Below, piece after piece: positions 29,454 through 43,757 of a DNA stretch of 64,000 nucleotides. The notes beneath the pieces were generated by a model, which saw only the letters and a program-made list of their open reading frames with translations, had not been told where the DNA came from and ran no database searches. Origin of the DNA: Deltaproteobacteria bacterium. Lineage in GTDB: Bacteria; Bdellovibrionota; FAC87; UBA2466. The stretch lies in assembly GCA_900299195.1 (NCBI GenBank), contig OMIX01000098.1:92342-156341 (forward strand), given 5' to 3'. Each line of letters starts with the position of its first letter. The first letter of the stretch is position 1. The position numbers and the translations under genes were made by a program.

Positions 29454-29858
29454 TTAATTCGTCTTGGTTTGCCTAGTAAGACCGGGAAGGGGACCCAACA
29501 TTTTAGTTTTTCCATCAAACACTGCCCCTTCCTCAATCTGCAATATCGCGGTTTGAACTGTGCCTCGAACCACAGCTGGGGCTTGAATTTCCACTCTCTG
29601 GGTAGAATAAATATCTCCCGAGAAATGTCCTGAAATTACAACAACATCCGCTTCTATTTGACCAGTAACTTGGGCTTCATCACCAATGATCAAAATGTCC
29701 GGAGTAAAAATTTCTCCTTTAAAACTGCCATCTATTCTGGCCGTTCCTTCAAATTGGAGACGTCCCTCAAGATGACACCCTTTTTGAAGAACCACAGTAA
29801 CTTCGTGGCTTACTGAGGGAAGATCAAATGGATCCTGGCGGCGTTGAAACATTTTCAC
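29454..29858 (-). CDS. Bactofilin (DUF583 polymer-forming cytoskeletal protein)
   Basis: Beta-helical bactofilin repeat GTARIDGSFKGEIFTPDILIIGDEAQVTGQIEADVVVISGHFSGDIY. Directly downstream of parB. Confidence 0.75.
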   Translation of the reverse strand: MKMFQRRQDPFDLPSVSHEVTVVLQKGCHLEGRLQFEGTARIDGSFKGEIFTPDILIIGDEAQVTGQIEADVVVISGHFSGDIYSTQRVEIQAPAVVRGTVQTAILQIEEGAVFDGKTKMLGPLPGLTRQTKTN

Positions 29859-30744
29859 CTTTTAGCTCATCTGCTAGACGCATTAAATCATCACGGGTTG
29901 CGTAGGTAAACTGAATGAGCCCTTTATTGTCGTTACCCACAATTTTTACCATTGTCCCATAAATTCTTTTAAGGTCTTCTTCAAGCGCTCTCAAATGGAT
30001 ATTTTCATGGGACGGAGCGGCACCGGGGCCTTTCCCCTTATCTCTGATTACCTCTCCTACTTTACGCTCTGTTTCTCGAACCGAAAGTTTTTTCTTTACT
30101 ATCATCTCGCGAACAGCCAGCTGGTCCTCAGCGGTCTCTAGAGATAACAACGCCCTAGCGTGACCCATGGTAATTTTCCCAGCTGTAATATCCTCTCGAA
30201 TCACTGCTGGTAATTTAAGAAGTCGCAAAGTGTTGGCCACAGTGGCCCTATTTTTACCAACGCGATTAGCTATATCCTCTTGGGAAAGCTGAAACTCATC
30301 CATCAACTGCTGATAAGCAATAGCTTCTTCAATACAATTCAGATCCTCTCTTTGAATGTTTTCGATGATGGCCATTTCAAGAGATGTTTGATCTCCATCA
30401 ATTTCTTTGACGACAACCGGAACTTGTTTCAATCCAGCGCGTTGAGCAGCTCTCCATCGACGCTCACCAGCAATGAGTTCAAAACGCCCATCTTTGTGCC
30501 TTACGATCAAGGGCTGAATAACACCATGAACTTTTACCGATTCAACCAATTCGTCTAAAGCTTCTTTTTGAAAAATTTTTCTCGGTTGGTAGGTGTTCGG
30601 TACTATTTTCTCTATGTCGCAATAGAAAAAATCTTTTTTTAACTGTGCGCCAGGTAAAGTCCCCTCCGGACCTTGGGCCTCTGGAATCAAAGAGGCTAAA
30701 CCTCTACCGAGTGGTTTTTTTCTGTCGAGATCAAGGGTTGCCAT
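29824..30744 (-). CDS. parB: Chromosome partitioning protein ParB (Spo0J)
   Basis: ParB box GERRWRAA and an HTH region; N-terminal LGRGLASLI. Confidence 0.9.
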
Positions 30745-31654
30745 ATTCTATGCCTTTCTGTTCTGTCGGTCCGATATCTGTTAAAGCCTCAACTGGAATC
30801 TCTGGGAGATCTTCTGAGATCGTTTCCTCGGTCAGAGGTTGTTCTGAAAGTTTACTTACATCCACCTTGGGTCCACCTTCTAACCGGCGAATTACTTCCT
30901 GTGCTAAATTCAAATAACTTTGGGAACCCGTAGAGCTAATGTCGTAAAGCAAAACTGGCTTGCCGTGACTTGGACTTTCACTCAATTTCACATTTCTAGG
31001 AATGACCGTATCAAAAACAGTGCTCTTAAAATGATTTTTAACCTCAGTCACTACTTGTCTCGAAAGATTATTCCTTGAATCAAACATCGTAAGAAGAATG
31101 CCAAGCTGCTGTAGCTTTTTATTGAGTCCTTTTCTTATAAGCTCTGCAGTATGAAGAAACTGTCCCAATCCTTCCATTGCATAATATTCACACTGCAACG
31201 GAATCAGATAATAATGAGATGCGGTAAGAGCATTTAAAGTTAGTAGTCCCAACGAAGGGGGACAATCGATAAAAATATAATCAAATTTGGTCCCCTCAGA
31301 TTTTTCTAACTCCTCAAAAGCATTTTTTAGTCTGAGCTCCCGAGCAATCGCTTGAACTAACTCTATCTCTGCCCCACTTAAATTATTATCGGACGGGCAA
31401 ACTTTTAAATATTGAAGTCCTGTTGGATAGATGGCCTCTCTCATCGGAAGCTCATCGATAAGTACGTGATAAATATTTTTATCAGTGAAAAGCCCCTTAT
31501 CGACACCCAACCCACTTGAGGCATTTCCTTGTGGATCTAGATCAACCAACAACACTTTTTTCTCGGCCGCCGCAACTGAAGCCGCGAGATTCACTGCTGT
31601 CGTGGTTTTACCGACACCGCCCTTTTGATTTGCGATTGCTATTATATTTGCCAT
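30731..31654 (-). CDS. parA: Chromosome partitioning ATPase ParA (Soj) with an acidic C-terminal extension of about 50 aa
   Basis: Deviant Walker [16 protein letters not shown]. After the canonical LAQEVIRR end, an extra Glu/Pro-rich tail ([34 protein letters not shown]...) follows. Confidence 0.9.
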
Positions 31655-31812
31655 AAATTTTTCGGAACAAAAATCAGATTATGTGATTGATATTTCTATC
31701 ATATTTTTTTTTACTGTACAAAAATTTTTCCACGAAAAAAAATTTAATTGCTCTTCAGGAATTGGAACGATGAGCCAATCGTCGATACTAAAAGATTTGT
31801 CTACGGGTGGAA

Positions 31813-31830
31813 TTGTTCCACGTGGAACAA
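31813..31830. promoter_or_regulatory. parS: parS site (18-bp perfect palindrome TTGTTCCACGTGGAACAA)
   Basis: Perfect palindrome in the parA-rsmG spacer. The 16-bp core TGTTCCACGTGGAACA differs from the canonical TGTTTCACGTGAAACA at the symmetric positions 5 and 12. Confidence 0.7.
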
Positions 31831-31838
31831 AATTTAGA

Positions 31839-32474
31839 TTACTTTGTTCCACGTGGAACAAAGTTAAAGCTCTCTACTCTTCTAGGGCCACAATCCATGG
31901 GAAGCTCATAATAAAGCTCTCCACATTTTTGAAACTCTTTGGGTGGGACTAAAGCCTCGCTGCTTCCGCCGACATTAACAATGAGGGTGCTCCCTGAATT
32001 CATTCTTTTAGACATAAACTTAAAAAGCTCTTGGGGTGGCAATACAGCCCTAGCCAAAAACAATCCACTCTTTCGCTCCAACGGCATCTCTCCCATCAAT
32101 TTGATGTTTTCCAATTGGAGGGTTGTTAGAACAGCGGACAAGAAGGTTTGTTTTTTTAAACTTCTTTCATACAGAGTGACTTTGGCATCGGGATATCGAA
32201 TGCCATAAATAATTCCAGGAAATCCGGCTCCGGTTCCAAGATCATAAACGGGTCTTGCTGATCGGTAATTTTCAGCGAAGTCACAGATTGAAATACTATC
32301 CACATAGTGGCTGGCGAAGGATTTATCGATGCTTTTTTTAGAAACCAAAGCCATTCTTTCATTCCAGTTTTTTAAAACTGAAAAATGTTTTTCGTAAAGG
32401 CTGAGTTCTGTCTCGGTTAGGTTCTTAAGACACTCGAGTTGGTTCTGATGGTTTTTAAAATGCTCTTTCAACAT
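31839..32474 (-). CDS. rsmG: 16S rRNA (guanine527-N7)-methyltransferase
   Basis: 211 aa SAM-MTase with GidB-family motifs (YDLGTGAGFPGI). Sits in the conserved mnmG-rsmG-parA-parB array. Confidence 0.85.
   Translation of the reverse strand: MLKEHFKNHQNQLECLKNLTETELSLYEKHFSVLKNWNERMALVSKKSIDKSFASHYVDSISICDFAENYRSARPVYDLGTGAGFPGIIYGIRYPDAKVTLYERSLKKQTFLSAVLTTLQLENIKLMGEMPLERKSGLFLARAVLPPQELFKFMSKRMNSGSTLIVNVGGSSEALVPPKEFQKCGELYYELPMDCGPRRVESFNFVPRGTK
31843..31862. promoter_or_regulatory. parS: parS site (20-bp perfect palindrome TTTGTTCCACGTGGAACAAA)
   Basis: Second copy, 31 bp from the first, overlapping the last codons of rsmG. Confidence 0.7.
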
Positions 32475-34372
32475 GTGGCTTCAGAGGTCGGAGGTTTCTG
32501 CCTTAAATGAAATAGGAGAGCCGAAAGCGCAGCTGGGGTAACCCCAGAAATTTTTGCAGCATCCGCTAAAGTGTTAGGCTTAATCCGTTCCAACTTCTCC
32601 TTAATTTCGATAGAAAGCCCTGAAACAACCCCATATTTAAGCTCTTTAGGAATGGTCAAAGTCTGCAGCTTTTTAAGTCTCTCGATTTCTTGGGCTTGCA
32701 TGACAACATATCCTTCATACTTAACCTCGATCTCAACTGTGTCTGAAGTCTGCTGATCTAATGGGTGAGGGGGAGCAGCCTCTGATATTTGCAAGATATC
32801 CGACAACTCAAGCTCTGGCCTTTTCAACAATGAATCCAATGATTGTGCCTGTAACATCGGGTTTAGCCCCTTTGAAGCAAACAGTTGATTCAGTTTCTCA
32901 GTAGGTTTGACGAATGTTTTCTTAAGAAAAGTTTTTGTTACTTCTATCGAACGCTTTTTTTCTTCAAAGCTTAGACGCTCATTTTGACCCAAAAGCCCCA
33001 GACTAATTCCATAGTGGCTTAGCCGCATGTCTGCGTTGTCCTCTCGAAGGGATAAACGATATTCAGCTCTAGAGGTAAACATCCGGTAGGGCTCGTTCAC
33101 CCCGAGCGTAGTGAGGTCGTCAACCATGACACCAATATAAGATTCCGTTCTGGAAAGAATAAAAGGCTCTCTCCCCTGTGAGTATAGCGAAGCATTAATC
33201 CCCGCTAATAAGCCCTGAGCAGCAGCCTCTTCGTAACCAGAAGTTCCATTCACTTGGCCACCTAAGAATAGCCCTCTAATATGCTTGGATTCGAGAGAGG
33301 GATGAAGTTGCCTTGGATCGATACAATCATATTCGACTGCGTAGCCATGTCTGGCAATTTTCACATCTCTGCAGCCGGGAATCGTTCGGATAAATTGCTC
33401 CTGCACATCAGCTGGTAAACTAGTCGATATTCCGTTGGGATAAATCCAATTAGAATCTAGAGCTTCTGGTTCAAAAAACAATTGGTGCCGTCCCTTATCG
33501 GGAAATTTAACTACTTTATCCTCGATAGACGGACAATACCTAGGACCTACACCCTTAATTTCTCCGCTATACAAAGGCGAGCGATGAAGGTTCGACTTAA
33601 TTGCATGATGGGTTTCATTGTTAGTAAAGGTAAGAAAACAGGAAACCTGGGGAAGGGGAATTGAACTATCCCAGAAACTGAACCTACTGGGGGGATTATC
33701 ACCAGCCTGTTCTTCCATTTGAGAAAAGTCTATCGTCTCTGCTAGTAGCCTTGCTGGGGTTCCTGTCTTTAGTCTAAGGAGATCAAACCCGAGCTCTCTT
33801 AAACAATCTGAAAGACCCAAAGAGGGGGCCTCTCCAAATCTTCCCCCCTCCGATTTGTCAAAGCCCGTGTGCATAACTGCCTTCATGAAGGTTCCAGCGG
33901 TGATAACAACCGAGGAGGCACCGATCTCTTGAAAGTGGCCGTTCGCATCTTTAGCCTGAAGAGCTCTTATCTTCCCGTTCTCTAATAACAGGGTCTTAAC
34001 CTCTCCATGAAAAACTTCCAGGTTTTTAGTTTCCTTTATAACCCCCTGCATACGGAGGGCGTATTGTCTTTTGTCGGACTGACAACGTGAAGACTGAACG
34101 GCACTTCCTTTTCTTGTATTTAATCTCTTAAATTGTATTCCGGTGAAGTCTGCGTTTTTTCCCATCTCTCCACCTAGAGCATCTATCTCCTTAACTAATT
34201 GGCCTTTGCCAACCCCTCCAATAGAAGGATTACAGGACATTTCAGCAATTTTATCAGGGTTCATGGTGACCAATAGGGTAGAGGTTCCCATTCGAGCAGA
34301 AGCTAGCGCGGCTTCACACCCTGCGTGTCCACCACCAATTACAACCACATCAAAATGTTTCACGTGGAACAT
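32468..34372 (-). CDS. mnmG: tRNA uridine-5-carboxymethylaminomethyl synthesis enzyme MnmG (GidA)
   Basis: FAD motif FDVVVIGGGHAGCEAA. The likely start is MFHVKHFDVV at 34372; the ORF-track start of 34390 adds 6 aa. Confidence 0.95.
   Translation of the reverse strand: MFHVKHFDVVVIGGGHAGCEAALASARMGTSTLLVTMNPDKIAEMSCNPSIGGVGKGQLVKEIDALGGEMGKNADFTGIQFKRLNTRKGSAVQSSRCQSDKRQYALRMQGVIKETKNLEVFHGEVKTLLLENGKIRALQAKDANGHFQEIGASSVVITAGTFMKAVMHTGFDKSEGGRFGEAPSLGLSDCLRELGFDLLRLKTGTPARLLAETIDFSQMEEQAGDNPPSRFSFWDSSIPLPQVSCFLTFTNNETHHAIKSNLHRSPLYSGEIKGVGPRYCPSIEDKVVKFPDKGRHQLFFEPEALDSNWIYPNGISTSLPADVQEQFIRTIPGCRDVKIARHGYAVEYDCIDPRQLHPSLESKHIRGLFLGGQVNGTSGYEEAAAQGLLAGINASLYSQGREPFILSRTESYIGVMVDDLTTLGVNEPYRMFTSRAEYRLSLREDNADMRLSHYGISLGLLGQNERLSFEEKKRSIEVTKTFLKKTFVKPTEKLNQLFASKGLNPMLQAQSLDSLLKRPELELSDILQISEAAPPHPLDQQTSDTVEIEVKYEGYVVMQAQEIERLKKLQTLTIPKELKYGVVSGLSIEIKEKLERIKPNTLADAAKISGVTPAALSALLFHLRQKPPTSEATC
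34356..34371. promoter_or_regulatory. parS: parS site (TGTTTCACGTGGAACA: one canonical half, one variant half)
   Basis: Lies inside the first codons of mnmG (MFHVKH read from the minus strand), at the mnmE/mnmG junction. Confidence 0.6.
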
Positions 34373-34374
34373 TT

Positions 34375-35739
34375 TTACTTCCCAATACAAAAATCACTAA
34401 AAATACGGCCTAAAACATCGTCAACTTCGACTTTCCCTACCACATTTTCAAGCTGAACCATAATTTTTCGACTAAACTCAGCTAGGATTTCAGGGGGATA
34501 CCCTTTATGTAGTTGAGATTTCAATTCTTTTAGGATTTCGGTCACAGCCTCTAATCTGGCCGCTTGCACAGCAGTGGGTGTCGGACCTAAATGATCAATA
34601 ATCAACTTTGCTGCCGTTGATTCCAGGCTAGACCAAAATTCTTCCATGTTGGCGGAGTTAAAAACAGAACCCTCCACCGATTTGTCTTTTAATTGCTGAG
34701 GACTTTTTTTCCAATTTGAAAGGTCCATTTTGTTCCAGAAAATTAAGTGGGGAACACTTCCAAAGCGATCAAGAAGTCCCTGTTCCTGTTCTGTAATGCC
34801 CTGCGTTCCATCAACAACTAAAACCCAGATAGATGCACTAGATAAAAATGCGGATCCTAATTCGATCCCTTCTTGCTCAATAAAATTCTCGGTCGTTCTT
34901 ATGCCGGCCGTATCAGCAACCATCCAAGGACGACTCAATATTTCAATTTGTTCCTCGATGACGTCTCGAGTGGTTCCAGCTTCTTCCGAAACAATAGCTC
35001 GGTATCTACCTAACATAGAATTAAAAAGAGAGGATTTTCCGGCGTTAGGCCTTCCGACTAAAACAATTTTCGGCAAGATTTTACCGCTCTTAAACCTCGA
35101 GTATCTCTGAGTAATCTCTGAGCACTCATGAATAAGCTCTTCAATTTATTGATTAGCTAACTCCACTGCCGAGGAATACTCTTCCGAAAAATCAACGGCG
35201 GTATCAAGTATCGCCTGAATTTTGATGAGTCGTGATCTTAGATCTTCTATTTTCTTCTCTAGCCCACCATCTCTGCGGGAATAGACAGCTTGCAAATCCA
35301 CCGAATGTACAGCATTAAAAACATCCGCTAAATTCTCTAACTCTAAGGGAGATTGTTTTCCGTTGAGTAAAGCCCGGTAAGAAAACTCTCCCCGCTCCGC
35401 AGGCCTTGCCGACAAAGACAAGAGTTCTTTTTCCAAAGAATGAATGACTGCAACCGAACCATGACAATGAAACTCAATAGTGTCATCGCCACTATGGGAG
35501 TTGGGCCCCACAAAAGAAATTGCCATAATGTCATCGATTTTTTTTCCTGTCCGGGTATGCAGAACACCAAACCAGATATCGCGAATTTTCGATAGCTCTC
35601 TAGACTTTGGAGTAAATAGCTTTTCCGCAATTAAAAATGCCTTCGGACCCGAAAGTTTTACGACTCCAATGGCAGAGGGAAGTGTCCCAGTGGTAAGAGC
35701 AAAAATGGTATCTTCTAAACTTAAGTTCTCACGCAACAT
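34375..35739 (-). pseudogene. mnmE: tRNA modification GTPase MnmE (TrmE) interrupted by a single in-frame TAA at 35148-35146
   Basis: ORF 35739-35146 encodes the MnmE N-terminal domain (FALTTG...AIGVVKLSG). The same frame continues after the TAA into the G domain (GRPNAGKSSLFN) and the C-terminal CIGK. The uninterrupted frame is 455 codons, the canonical MnmE length. Confidence 0.6.
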
Positions 35740-35741
35740 AG

Positions 35742-37361
35742 TTAGGACGGTTGAAGGCCTGTCCCAATTTTATCTCTCAAGGCTAATTGTTGAGCAACTC
35801 CCAGTAAGGTGCTGACAAAAATATAAAGGGTCAAACCTGAGGGCAGATTGACCATCATGAAAGTAAAAATGACTGGCATAAATAACATCATCTTTTGTTG
35901 AGCGGGATCCATTCCTGCGCTTGGCGTCATTTTCTGCTGAAGCAACATGGCAAGACCCATCAAGATCGGGTAAATGTAAAATGGATCTTTTGTGGACAGA
36001 TCTTGAATCCAACCAAAAAAGGGCGCGTGAAAAAGTTCAATCGAGTTACCCAGCACAGCATACAGGGCAATAAAAACTGGCAATTGAATCAACATAGGAA
36101 GACAACCGCCCGCTGGGTTGACTTTGTGCGCCTTAAACAAAGCCATTTGCTCTTCGTTGAGCTTTTTCGGGTCGTCTTTATATTTTTCTTTTAATTGGGC
36201 AATTTTCGGCTGAAGCTTTTGCATTTCCTTCATCGACTTCATGCTTTTTTGGGACAACGGATAAAATAACGCCCTCACCAAGACCGTAAGCAGAATGATA
36301 GCTATCCCATAGTTATGAATAAACTTATAAAAAAACCGCAAAATCTCTAAAAGCGGATAGGCAAAAACAGTAAAAGTTCCATAATCTATCAATTTTTTTA
36401 AACCAGGAATCTTAGAGAGCTCTTTGTAGTCTTTAGGCCCCACATAAAACTTTAACGAGAAATCCAATTCCCTCTGACCACTCTTCAAAATAAGCGGATA
36501 CTTAAGATACGCACCATTGAAGTTCTCTGTTTTCTTAAAAACAACATCAGGATTGATTTGAGAACTTTGATTTATGACAACACTGGCAAAATATCGGTTC
36601 CCGAAAGCCAACCACTCCGATTTCCCCTGATGAACTGATTCATCTTCCTTTCTCAACTTCTCAAGGTTTCGCCTCTGAATTTCATCATTCTGATAGAAAA
36701 CAACCTCCCAGGACTTGAGCGGCTCCTGAGCATTAAATGTCTCTTGTTCTGAAGTTCCAAGCGGGATAAGTAGGCTTCCCCAATCTTTTCTATCCTCTTT
36801 GAGGAATGAAATCTTAAAATTAGCTTCGATAAAATTCGAGTTTTCGGAAAACCGATATTGCTTGGATACACTGATGTCTTTAGTCTTCTTGGTAAAAACA
36901 ACCTGGTTGGCTGATTGTTGAGCATCGAAACTTCCACGCGAAAACTCCGACAAAACAGGATCAGTAAAAAGTGCCGCCAAAGCCAAAGTTGTCTTTGCTG
37001 TCTCTATCGGTGTTACAAGGGGAGACTTTTTGTCGATGGTCTCTCTGAACTTTAAGAGCTTAACTCCTGCTATCTTTCCCCCGTTGGACGAAAACAAAAC
37101 ATCCAAAGCATCAGTTCTAAGATTTAATTTTGACCCCTCCGGGATAGGGCTAAAAGCACTATCGTGAGCGACTTTTTCGCTAGCGGTACTGGTTTGGGAA
37201 CTTACAGAAGGCTTTTCTTGGGACAAATTTGATCCACCAGACTCCACAAGTCTTGTGTCGGTTGCGGACGGTTTTTGTGGCGGGACAGGGGAAAACCAAC
37301 GTATCCAACCAAACCAAATAAGAAGCATTAAAGAAACCGCTAACCACGTTCTTGAGGCCAT
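35742..37361 (-). CDS. yidC: Membrane protein insertase YidC
   Basis: 539 aa: an N-terminal TM, a large periplasmic domain and the conserved C-terminal five-TM core. Conserved position after yidD. Confidence 0.9.
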   Translation of the reverse strand: MASRTWLAVSLMLLIWFGWIRWFSPVPPQKPSATDTRLVESGGSNLSQEKPSVSSQTSTASEKVAHDSAFSPIPEGSKLNLRTDALDVLFSSNGGKIAGVKLLKFRETIDKKSPLVTPIETAKTTLALAALFTDPVLSEFSRGSFDAQQSANQVVFTKKTKDISVSKQYRFSENSNFIEANFKISFLKEDRKDWGSLLIPLGTSEQETFNAQEPLKSWEVVFYQNDEIQRRNLEKLRKEDESVHQGKSEWLAFGNRYFASVVINQSSQINPDVVFKKTENFNGAYLKYPLILKSGQRELDFSLKFYVGPKDYKELSKIPGLKKLIDYGTFTVFAYPLLEILRFFYKFIHNYGIAIILLTVLVRALFYPLSQKSMKSMKEMQKLQPKIAQLKEKYKDDPKKLNEEQMALFKAHKVNPAGGCLPMLIQLPVFIALYAVLGNSIELFHAPFFGWIQDLSTKDPFYIYPILMGLAMLLQQKMTPSAGMDPAQQKMMLFMPVIFTFMMVNLPSGLTLYIFVSTLLGVAQQLALRDKIGTGLQPS

Positions 37362-39840: not shown

Positions 39841-39998
39841 TGTGGATAAAAAGGTATGCTTTTTCTTTGGGGTAATGTTAATAACTATGTTGAAAACATT
39901 GTTAATTGTTTGTTAATTGTTTGTTGAAAACTTGTTGATAACTTTTTATCCACAGTTCATCCACAGCTTTTAAAAAGTTATCCACATCGTTATCCACA
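39841..39998. promoter_or_regulatory. DnaA-box cluster of oriC
   Basis: Perfect TTATCCACA 9-mers at 39841-39849 (reverse), 39946-39954, 39978-39986 and 39990-39998, plus TCATCCACA at 39957-39965. Also contains direct repeats GTTAATTGTTT x2 (39901-39922) and TGTTGAAAAC x2. Confidence 0.8.
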
Positions 39999-40128: not shown

Positions 40129-41283
40129 ATGAAATTGCAGATTTCGAAAAGCCAAATGTTGTTAGGACTCCAACGTGTACAAAACGTTGTTGAGAGAAGA
40201 ACAACGATGCCGATTTTGTCTAACGCTCTTTTAAAAACAGAAAAAAATGGTTTGTCTTTGTCGGCAACTGATTTGGAAGTCGGAATTCAGTCCGTTTTAC
40301 CTGCTGAAATCATGGAAAATGGTTCAATTACCGTCAAAGCTCGCAGTCTTTTGGATATTGTAAGAGAACTTCCGGATACAGTGATTCAGTTTCAGACTAA
40401 AGAAAATAATCGGTTGGCGATTAAAGCCAATAAGTCAGTTTTCAATATTGTGGGATTACCTGCTGAAGACTTTCCTGAGATTCCAAGTTTTTCCTCTGAA
40501 GAACACCAACAGTTTGTCAGAATGAACGGTCAAGCGGTCATGGCCATGTTAGACAAAACTTTATACGCCGCATCTACTGATGAGGCGCGTTACCATTTGA
40601 ATGGTGTCTATTTTGAAACCTTGGAAAATACAACAGCGGACGACCCAAAAGGAAAAAAAGTTTTTCGAATGGTGGCTACTGACGCTCATCGTCTATCTTT
40701 AGTCGATAATCCAGAGACTCTATTTGATGAAAATGCGTGGAAGCTTTTCCAAGAGGGAATTATTGTTCCAAGAAAAGGGCTAAATGAACTTCGAAGATTA
40801 CTGTCTGAGGGAAAAGACGACTTTTTTGTCACTATTAGAGGAAAGATGCTTTTTGTTAAAAGAGATAATATCTTTCTATCAATGAGATTAATCGAAGGTA
40901 AATATGCTGATTATCGCCGTATTATTCCTGATCAATCGATTAATACTATTACTTTAGACCGCGAAGCCTTTCTGGCATCGCTTAAACGAATTTCTTTGAT
41001 GTCATCGGATAAATCCCGTAGTCTTACGTTTAGTTTAACTCCAGGAGTTTTGCAGCTTTCAAGTCAAAGCCCAGAACTAGGAGATGCCAACGAAGAAATT
41101 AGTATCGATTATAGTGGCGATGAGGTCAAAATTGGATTCAACTCTCGTTACTTAATTGATGCTGTTTCTACGATGGAAGGTAAAAAGATTATCTTAGAAC
41201 TTCGTGGAAAACAAAATCCCGGAGTCATTCGATCTTCTGACGGCCCTAACCACACCAGTGTGGTAATGCCGATGAGAATCTGA
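40129..41283 (+). CDS. dnaN: DNA polymerase III beta sliding clamp
   Basis: 384 aa with the three-domain clamp pattern. Follows dnaA and oriC. Confidence 0.9.
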   Translation: MKLQISKSQMLLGLQRVQNVVERRTTMPILSNALLKTEKNGLSLSATDLEVGIQSVLPAEIMENGSITVKARSLLDIVRELPDTVIQFQTKENNRLAIKANKSVFNIVGLPAEDFPEIPSFSSEEHQQFVRMNGQAVMAMLDKTLYAASTDEARYHLNGVYFETLENTTADDPKGKKVFRMVATDAHRLSLVDNPETLFDENAWKLFQEGIIVPRKGLNELRRLLSEGKDDFFVTIRGKMLFVKRDNIFLSMRLIEGKYADYRRIIPDQSINTITLDREAFLASLKRISLMSSDKSRSLTFSLTPGVLQLSSQSPELGDANEEISIDYSGDEVKIGFNSRYLIDAVSTMEGKKIILELRGKQNPGVIRSSDGPNHTSVVMPMRI

Positions 41284-41325
41284 TCTTTTTAATAAACTTT
41301 TAAAAAATACTAATTAGAAATTTAA

Positions 41326-43757
<2,432 letters not shown>

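Follow-up and report, generated by a model that had tools for sequence, protein, structure and literature searches.

The closest described counterpart of the palindromes reported here is the parS site of Bdellovibrio bacteriovorus HD100. Its chromosome contains two origin-proximal parS sites that are identical copies of TGTTCCACGTGGAACA and are located upstream of parAB (Kaljevic et al., PLoS Genet 2023, PMC10547168). The surrounding genes are arranged as rsmG-parA-parB-bactofilin (bd3908-(bd3907)-bd3906-bd3905-bd3904, PMC10547168 Fig 1B), and the oriC of B. bacteriovorus is found between dnaA and dnaN (PMC5124646). Purified ParB_Bb binds to parS_Bb and accumulates there in a CTP-dependent manner, and it also forms foci on parS_Bb in E. 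coli (PMC10547168). ParB_Bb does not accumulate on the Caulobacter T/A-type parS, whereas the Caulobacter ParB binds both forms; in view of this in vitro selectivity against the T/A form, positions 5 and 12 of the palindrome can matter for a Bdellovibrio ParB. When cells of B. bacteriovorus are non-replicative, in the attack phase, the native surroundings of parS, namely its short flanks, block ParB accumulation.

The same 16-mer has been characterised outside the Bdellovibrio lineage. The P. aeruginosa sites parS2 and parS3 (TGTTCCAC/GTGGAACA) are perfect palindromes with the highest affinity for ParB, and either of them alone is enough for segregation (PMC4368675). The P. putida parS is listed as TGTTCCACGTGGAACA, and the 22 parS sites of M. 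xanthus have the consensus TGTTCCACGTGGAACG, which is the same 16-mer with a final G (PMC7022226 Table 1). The canonical parS sites, TGTTNCACGTGAAACA / TGTTTCACGTGAAACA in B. subtilis and C. crescentus, share with these a 16-bp palindrome comprising a CACGTG core and TGTT/AACA flanks, and are likewise ParB-CTP loading sites near oriC.

The window (the whole stretch of 64,000 nt that was analysed) derives from another, uncultured species of the same Bdellovibrionaceae-like lineage. A pattern search locates TGTTCCACGTGGAACA twice in the window, with a distance of 31 bp from start to start, and both copies are identical to the Pseudomonas and Bdellovibrio parS at 16/16 positions (Table 1). This pair, together with a third site on the start codon of mnmG, very probably constitutes the origin-proximal parS centromere on which the chromosomal ParABS system of this Bdellovibrionaceae-like bacterium acts. 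The first-pass annotation had tied the palindromes to parAB as parS sites, an identification that is borne out by the exact consensus match, the adjacent ParA and ParB, the proximity to the origin and the conservation at orthologous positions; together with their non-chance occurrence these are the hallmarks of parS in a type Ia ParABS system.

Direct reading of the sequence and the pattern search agree with the original description of a palindrome pair between parA and rsmG, with the same 16-mer at each site, a first perfect palindrome of 18 bp (31813-31830) and a distance of 31 bp. The second perfect palindrome had been given as 20 bp but measures 24 bp (31841-31864, ACTTTGTTCCACGTGGAACAAAGT). 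The overlap of site 2 with the 3' end of rsmG is also correct, as the stop codon is located at 31839-31841 and site 2 encodes the end of RsmG (...F-V-P-R-G-T-K-stop). Two further points need amending. The pair had been placed just downstream of parAB, but because parA and parB are encoded on the minus strand it in fact lies upstream (5') of parA, and the count of two sites was incomplete as the site on mnmG had been overlooked.

Table 1. Coordinates of the putative parS sites, the surrounding genes and the elements of the origin region in the 64-kb window
Feature	Position	Strand	Remarks
bactofilin gene	29454-29858	minus	PF04519, 97 bits; directly 3' of parB
ATP synthase operon			after the bactofilin gene
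parB	29824-30744	minus	TIGR00180, 201 bits; ParB_N + HTH_ParB
parA	30731-31654	minus	AAA_31 (PF13614), 213 bits
promoter-like element for parA	31693-31721	minus	TTGTAC, 17 nt, TG-A-TAGAAA (extended -10 type)
rsmG-parA spacer			184 nt
putative parS site 1	31814-31829	.	TGTTCCACGTGGAACA; in the spacer towards parA, 10 nt past the stop of rsmG
putative parS site 2	31845-31860	.	TGTTCCACGTGGAACA; within the last rsmG codons (V-P-R-G-T)
rsmG (gidB)	31839-32474	minus	16S rRNA m7G527 methyltransferase; 3' end bears site 2
mnmG (gidA)	32468-34372	minus	TIGR00136, 820 bits; start codon inside site 3
putative parS site 3	34356-34371	.	TGTTTCACGTGGAACA on plus, TGTTCCACGTGAAACA on minus; pattern search
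mnmE	34375-35739	minus	interrupted by an in-frame TAA
yidC	35742-37361	minus	
dnaA	38391-39734	plus	followed by dnaN, gyrB and gyrA, also plus
DnaA-box cluster	39841-39998	.	four exact copies of TTATCCACA between dnaA and dnaN

The genes on the minus strand follow the order yidC-mnmE-mnmG-rsmG-parA-parB-bactofilin. The window can be recognised as the origin region of the chromosome because it contains dnaA, dnaN, gyrB and gyrA, a cluster of DnaA boxes and a turn in the cumulative GC skew, the minimum of which falls at 38-40 kb. The probable oriC is the DnaA-box cluster, which is located ~8.0 kb from the pair and ~5.5 kb from site 3; it occupies the dnaA-dnaN spacer, as oriC does in HD100. The locus thus resembles HD100 in the two identical copies of TGTTCCACGTGGAACA upstream of parAB and in the arrangement rsmG-parA-parB-bactofilin. 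It differs in that the window pair is 31 bp apart astride the rsmG stop codon, whereas cloning of the HD100 sites used a different fragment for each (242 and 330 bp), in that HD100 has the unknown ORF bd3907 annotated between rsmG and parA, and in the presence of an additional hybrid site on the mnmG ATG beside the two sites that correspond to those of HD100.

Two further features of the neighbourhood concern other genes. gyrB directly follows dnaN (41283-41332) and recF is not located between them. The mnmE gene is interrupted by a TAA at codon 198 (35146-35148, minus strand; ...ELANQ-stop-IEELIHE...), so that two ORFs result, 35146-35739 and 34375-35076. In relatives codon 198 is a sense codon (K, S, V, A or P). 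A single change would turn AAA into TAA, and the stop reflects either an error in sequencing or a nonsense mutation of recent date.

Site 3 is a hybrid, with one half-site of the C type and the other of the T type. It overlaps the start codon of mnmG (ATG at 34372-34370 on the minus strand), and the stop codon of mnmE lies 2 nt ahead of it. The minus strand reads A-TGTTCCACGTGAAACA-T, i.e. ATG TTC CAC GTG AAA CAT, which encodes the N-terminus MFHVKH. A site on the mnmG start (MFHVK/E...) is present in the window and in 16/16 relatives that cover the region, and in two of them (L019 and L021) it is doubled with a spacing of 30-31 bp. If the ParB of the window is as selective as ParB_Bb, the hybrid site may be weaker than the pair.

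The palindromes had been labelled a non-canonical variant of parS. This label does not stand, given that the same 16-mer has been characterised in P. aeruginosa, P. putida and B. bacteriovorus and nearly the same one in M. xanthus; moreover, the classic consensus TGTTNCACGTGAAACA already has N at position 5. Relative to the sites of B. subtilis and C. crescentus the pair has C/G instead of T/A at positions 5 and 12. Both members agree with the definition of a chromosomal parS, either tGTTNCACGTGAAACa or its C-type form TGTTCCACGTGGAACA, and site 3 is a C/T hybrid of the two. C/G at positions 5 and 12 is, judging by these comparisons, the normal form of parS in the lineage, as it is in Pseudomonas and Myxococcus, and does not appear to define a new specificity class.

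The two Pseudomonas species share with the window the identical palindrome, its proximity to the origin and its location near a gidA-gidB-parA-parB cluster. They belong to another phylum, however, and have four origin-proximal sites spread over kilobases in addition to hundreds of bound half-sites. No comparable enrichment of half-parS is seen in the window: GTTCCAC occurs in 11 copies, five of which are inside the three full sites, and the six outside compare with 5.6 expected. M. xanthus shares the C-type half-site GTTCCAC and a closely related ParB, but has 22 sites as opposed to three within the 64-kb window.

The partition proteins encoded next to the pair are typical of their families. 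ParB scores 201 bits against a cut-off of 58 for TIGR00180 (ParB/RepB/Spo0J), comprises the ParB_N (PF02195) and HTH_ParB (PF17762) domains and, as seen in an alignment to the Caulobacter ParB (6T1F), contains an N-terminal LGRGL motif and the CTP-binding motif GERRWRA. 6T1F is also its best solved relative (E 9.5e-56), and the M. xanthus ParB structure 7BNK is matched with E 1.7e-53. A Noc protein was considered and rejected, as the score of 255.6 bits for TIGR04285 is below the cut-off of 315. The NBS-type site of the nucleoid occlusion factor Noc is tATTTCCCGGGAAATa; an NBS was likewise rejected as the identity of the palindromes, which have the CACGTG core and the TGTT arms of parS. ParA is an ATPase of the ParA/Soj type whose Walker A motif is the deviant KGGVGKTT. 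It is 307 aa long and ends in a C-terminal extension of ~50 residues (~258-307; 30731-30890, minus strand) that is acidic and proline-rich and reaches beyond the usual ParA fold. The parA and parB genes overlap by 14 nt.

The nearest genome-derived ParB proteins belong to MAGs of uncultured Bdellovibrionaceae/Bdellovibrionales, with 91% identity for UBA2466, and identity falls to ~67-72% in other Bdellovibrio/Pseudobdellovibrionaceae MAGs. A ParB with 99% identity is present in a JGI metagenome, and the best 120 ParB homologues all come from uncultured relatives with at least 68% identity. Within the helix-turn-helix (window residues ~160-175) the clade with T-rich parS sites (L008, L009, L013 and L014) has GKGRTTIANT, and genomes with C-type sites have GKNRA/VT(V/I)ANT or GKERASVANY. 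The T-rich sites represent one clade and hence a single phylogenetic event, from which nothing can be concluded about GKGRTT versus GKNRAT as the determinant of C or T at position 5.

Conservation was assessed in ParB-anchored loci of reference genomes and metagenomes that were scanned for parS. The rsmG-parA junction is covered by 19 sequences, i.e. the window and 18 relatives. A pair of sites is situated at the rsmG stop codon in 15/19, with offsets from the stop of -21/+10 or -18/+13 in most, and the remaining 4/19 have a single good site. When the six closest sequences are aligned, both 16-mers are nearly invariant, whereas the 15-nt spacer between the sites and the DNA downstream of the pair cannot be aligned. 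The RsmG tail encoded at site 2 varies among relatives (VPRGT, VSRGT, VPRET or VSRET) and the palindrome is kept throughout. Positions 5 and 12 of the orthologous sites are occupied by C/G, T/A or hybrids of these, and on the evidence of this comparison they are evolutionarily free within the lineage. Such a pattern is what would be expected of functional ParB loading sites, and argues against an operator at a fixed distance.

An operator is nevertheless the alternative that fares best, although it is unlikely to be the correct one. The palindromes would then serve mainly in the autoregulation of the parAB promoter by ParB, or would have this role in addition to that of a centromere. The location of the pair upstream of parA is in support of this, as is a promoter-like block that lies between the two, ~95 nt downstream of the pair and ~40 nt before the parA ATG, with long A/T tracts beside it. 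The block is kept in relatives as TG-N-TA-N-AAA (31693-31701) with TTGTAC or TTGAAG 17 nt upstream, and we infer that it may be the parA promoter; a generic promoter scan did not call the element at 31693-31721. It is also known that spreading of ParB silences neighbouring genes in P. aeruginosa (PMC7022226) and that the balance of parAB expression is critical in B. bacteriovorus (PMC10547168). Against an operator, the pair is fixed to the rsmG stop codon and not to parA, and depending on the relative it is separated from the parA ATG by as little as 119 or as much as 406 nt. Furthermore, another conserved site, the third, is found on mnmG at 2.5 kb from the pair, and identical sites function as centromeres in Pseudomonas and Bdellovibrio.

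The spacer between rsmG and parA contains two other features. The sequence TTTTTCCACGAAAAAAAA (31725-31742) is similar to the core of a parS half-site (TTCCACG) and is bordered by A/T tracts on either side; it is loosely kept in the closest relatives as GTGGAAAAA, TTGGAAAAA or TTGTAAAAA. The small ORFs 31679-31861 (minus strand) and 31683-31952 (plus strand) had been dismissed as artefacts, and this judgement can be upheld. As candidates for real proteins both were rejected: neither has a Pfam match or any other family match, and no conserved ORF is found in relatives, where the length of the spacer lies anywhere between 65 and 721 nt and the indels are of sizes not divisible by three.

A very improbable alternative is that the palindromes act at the RNA level, as a hairpin by which the rsmG transcript is terminated or stabilised, with the likeness to parS being incidental. 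The two sites are indeed able to pair on the minus strand, which is the sense strand of rsmG, in a 21-bp hairpin with a dG of -33.8 kcal/mol and a z of -8.3, but a strong fold is the automatic result of two identical palindromes. One terminator-like match was found, but on the plus strand, and on the sense strand of rsmG the hairpin has no U tract behind it; an intrinsic (rho-independent) terminator was therefore rejected as the main role. The exact parS sequence is conserved without the compensatory variation of a paired stem, four relatives have a single site only, and the same motif recurs at the very start of mnmG, a place in which termination would be senseless. Scanned against Rfam at E<=1, the segment 31400-32100 gave only matches far below threshold, and a known RNA family was rejected on these scores (hairpin-like miRNA models at ~20 bits versus cut-offs of 84-94, and ARRPOF at 24 versus 127).

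The notion that the palindromes arose by chance or are extragenic repeats of a generic kind that serve no specific function, to which the AT-rich and repeat-rich spacer might lend itself, is already refuted by statistics and conservation: TGTTYCACGTGRAACA with <=2 mismatches has three matches in the 64-kb window versus 0.10 expected, a number reached in 0/100 dinucleotide-preserving shuffles, these three copies are the only ones in the window and all lie less than 8 kb or so from oriC, half-sites outside the full sites occur at the chance rate, and the orthologous sites are kept though the ParB proteins of the relatives are only ~67-91% identical.

Among the loci L001-L021 and L072-L087, only three classes of start-to-start spacing of the pair occur within the Bdellovibrio clade: 31 bp in most, 41/42 bp (L008, L009, L014 and L082) and 51 bp (L010 and L084), which correspond to ~3, 4 and 5 helical turns. 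A scan of metagenomes added no new class (31, 41 and 51 again). Pairs in unrelated taxa have spacings that are not phased in this way (38, 48, 58 and 69), and in the more distant Bacteriovorax-like clade the spacing is 161 or 180 bp. It is suggestive, at a rough P of ~0.08, that the spacing in the Bdellovibrio clade is held to whole helical turns.

In three of the relatives the two members of the pair share one asymmetric variant. Both are TGTTTCACGTGGAACA in L008 and L014, and both are the mirror form TGTTCCACGTGAAACA in L009. An inversion between the palindromes was rejected as the origin of the mirror form, as the orientation of the spacer is unchanged. Because both members are alike and the spacer of L009 is not inverted, the variants of L008/L014 and L009 suggest a concerted change. 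The spacing and the concerted change can be tied loosely, by analogy, to the blocking of parS in attack-phase B. bacteriovorus. It is a decidedly doubtful extension of this that the tandem pair is not two independent sites but a clade-specific centromere architecture built on the rsmG stop codon, in which two ParB dimers could sit on one face of the DNA or the two sites could form one hairpin or cruciform with arms of 19-21 bp, and which might contribute to the masking of parS in the attack phase. Elsewhere in the survey, an actinobacterial locus from a Galactobacter MAG (L055:1159-1412) has five parS-like sites at intervals of 58-60 bp upstream of parB and, further on, three more at intervals of 72-74 bp.

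By analogy with the described systems the main function of the sites is most likely the CTP-dependent loading of ParB. Following established ParABS biology, a ParB dimer would read each 16-bp palindrome via its helix-turn-helix domain, take CTP at the GERRxR motif, shut into a clamp and slide onto the neighbouring DNA. The ParA ATPase would move the ParB-coated region, located ~5-8 kb from oriC, and in this way segregate the sister origins, and the coated region would probably also recruit SMC. We infer binding, spreading and segregation by ParB in the organism of the window from these better studied systems. Given the context block in non-replicative cells of B. bacteriovorus, the occupancy of parS may be conditional here too.

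The analysis places the putative centromere of an uncultured Bdellovibrionaceae-like genome ~5-8 kb from oriC, which matters little beyond annotation. It also shows that the family as a whole shares the C-type parS and the gene layout rsmG-parS-parA-parB-bactofilin known from B. bacteriovorus. Two modest leads emerge for the cell-cycle-gated centromere of Bdellovibrio: the spacing of the pair, which appears to follow whole helical turns, and the drift among relatives from C/G to T/A and back at positions 5 and 12, two forms that ParB_Bb nevertheless tells apart in vitro.
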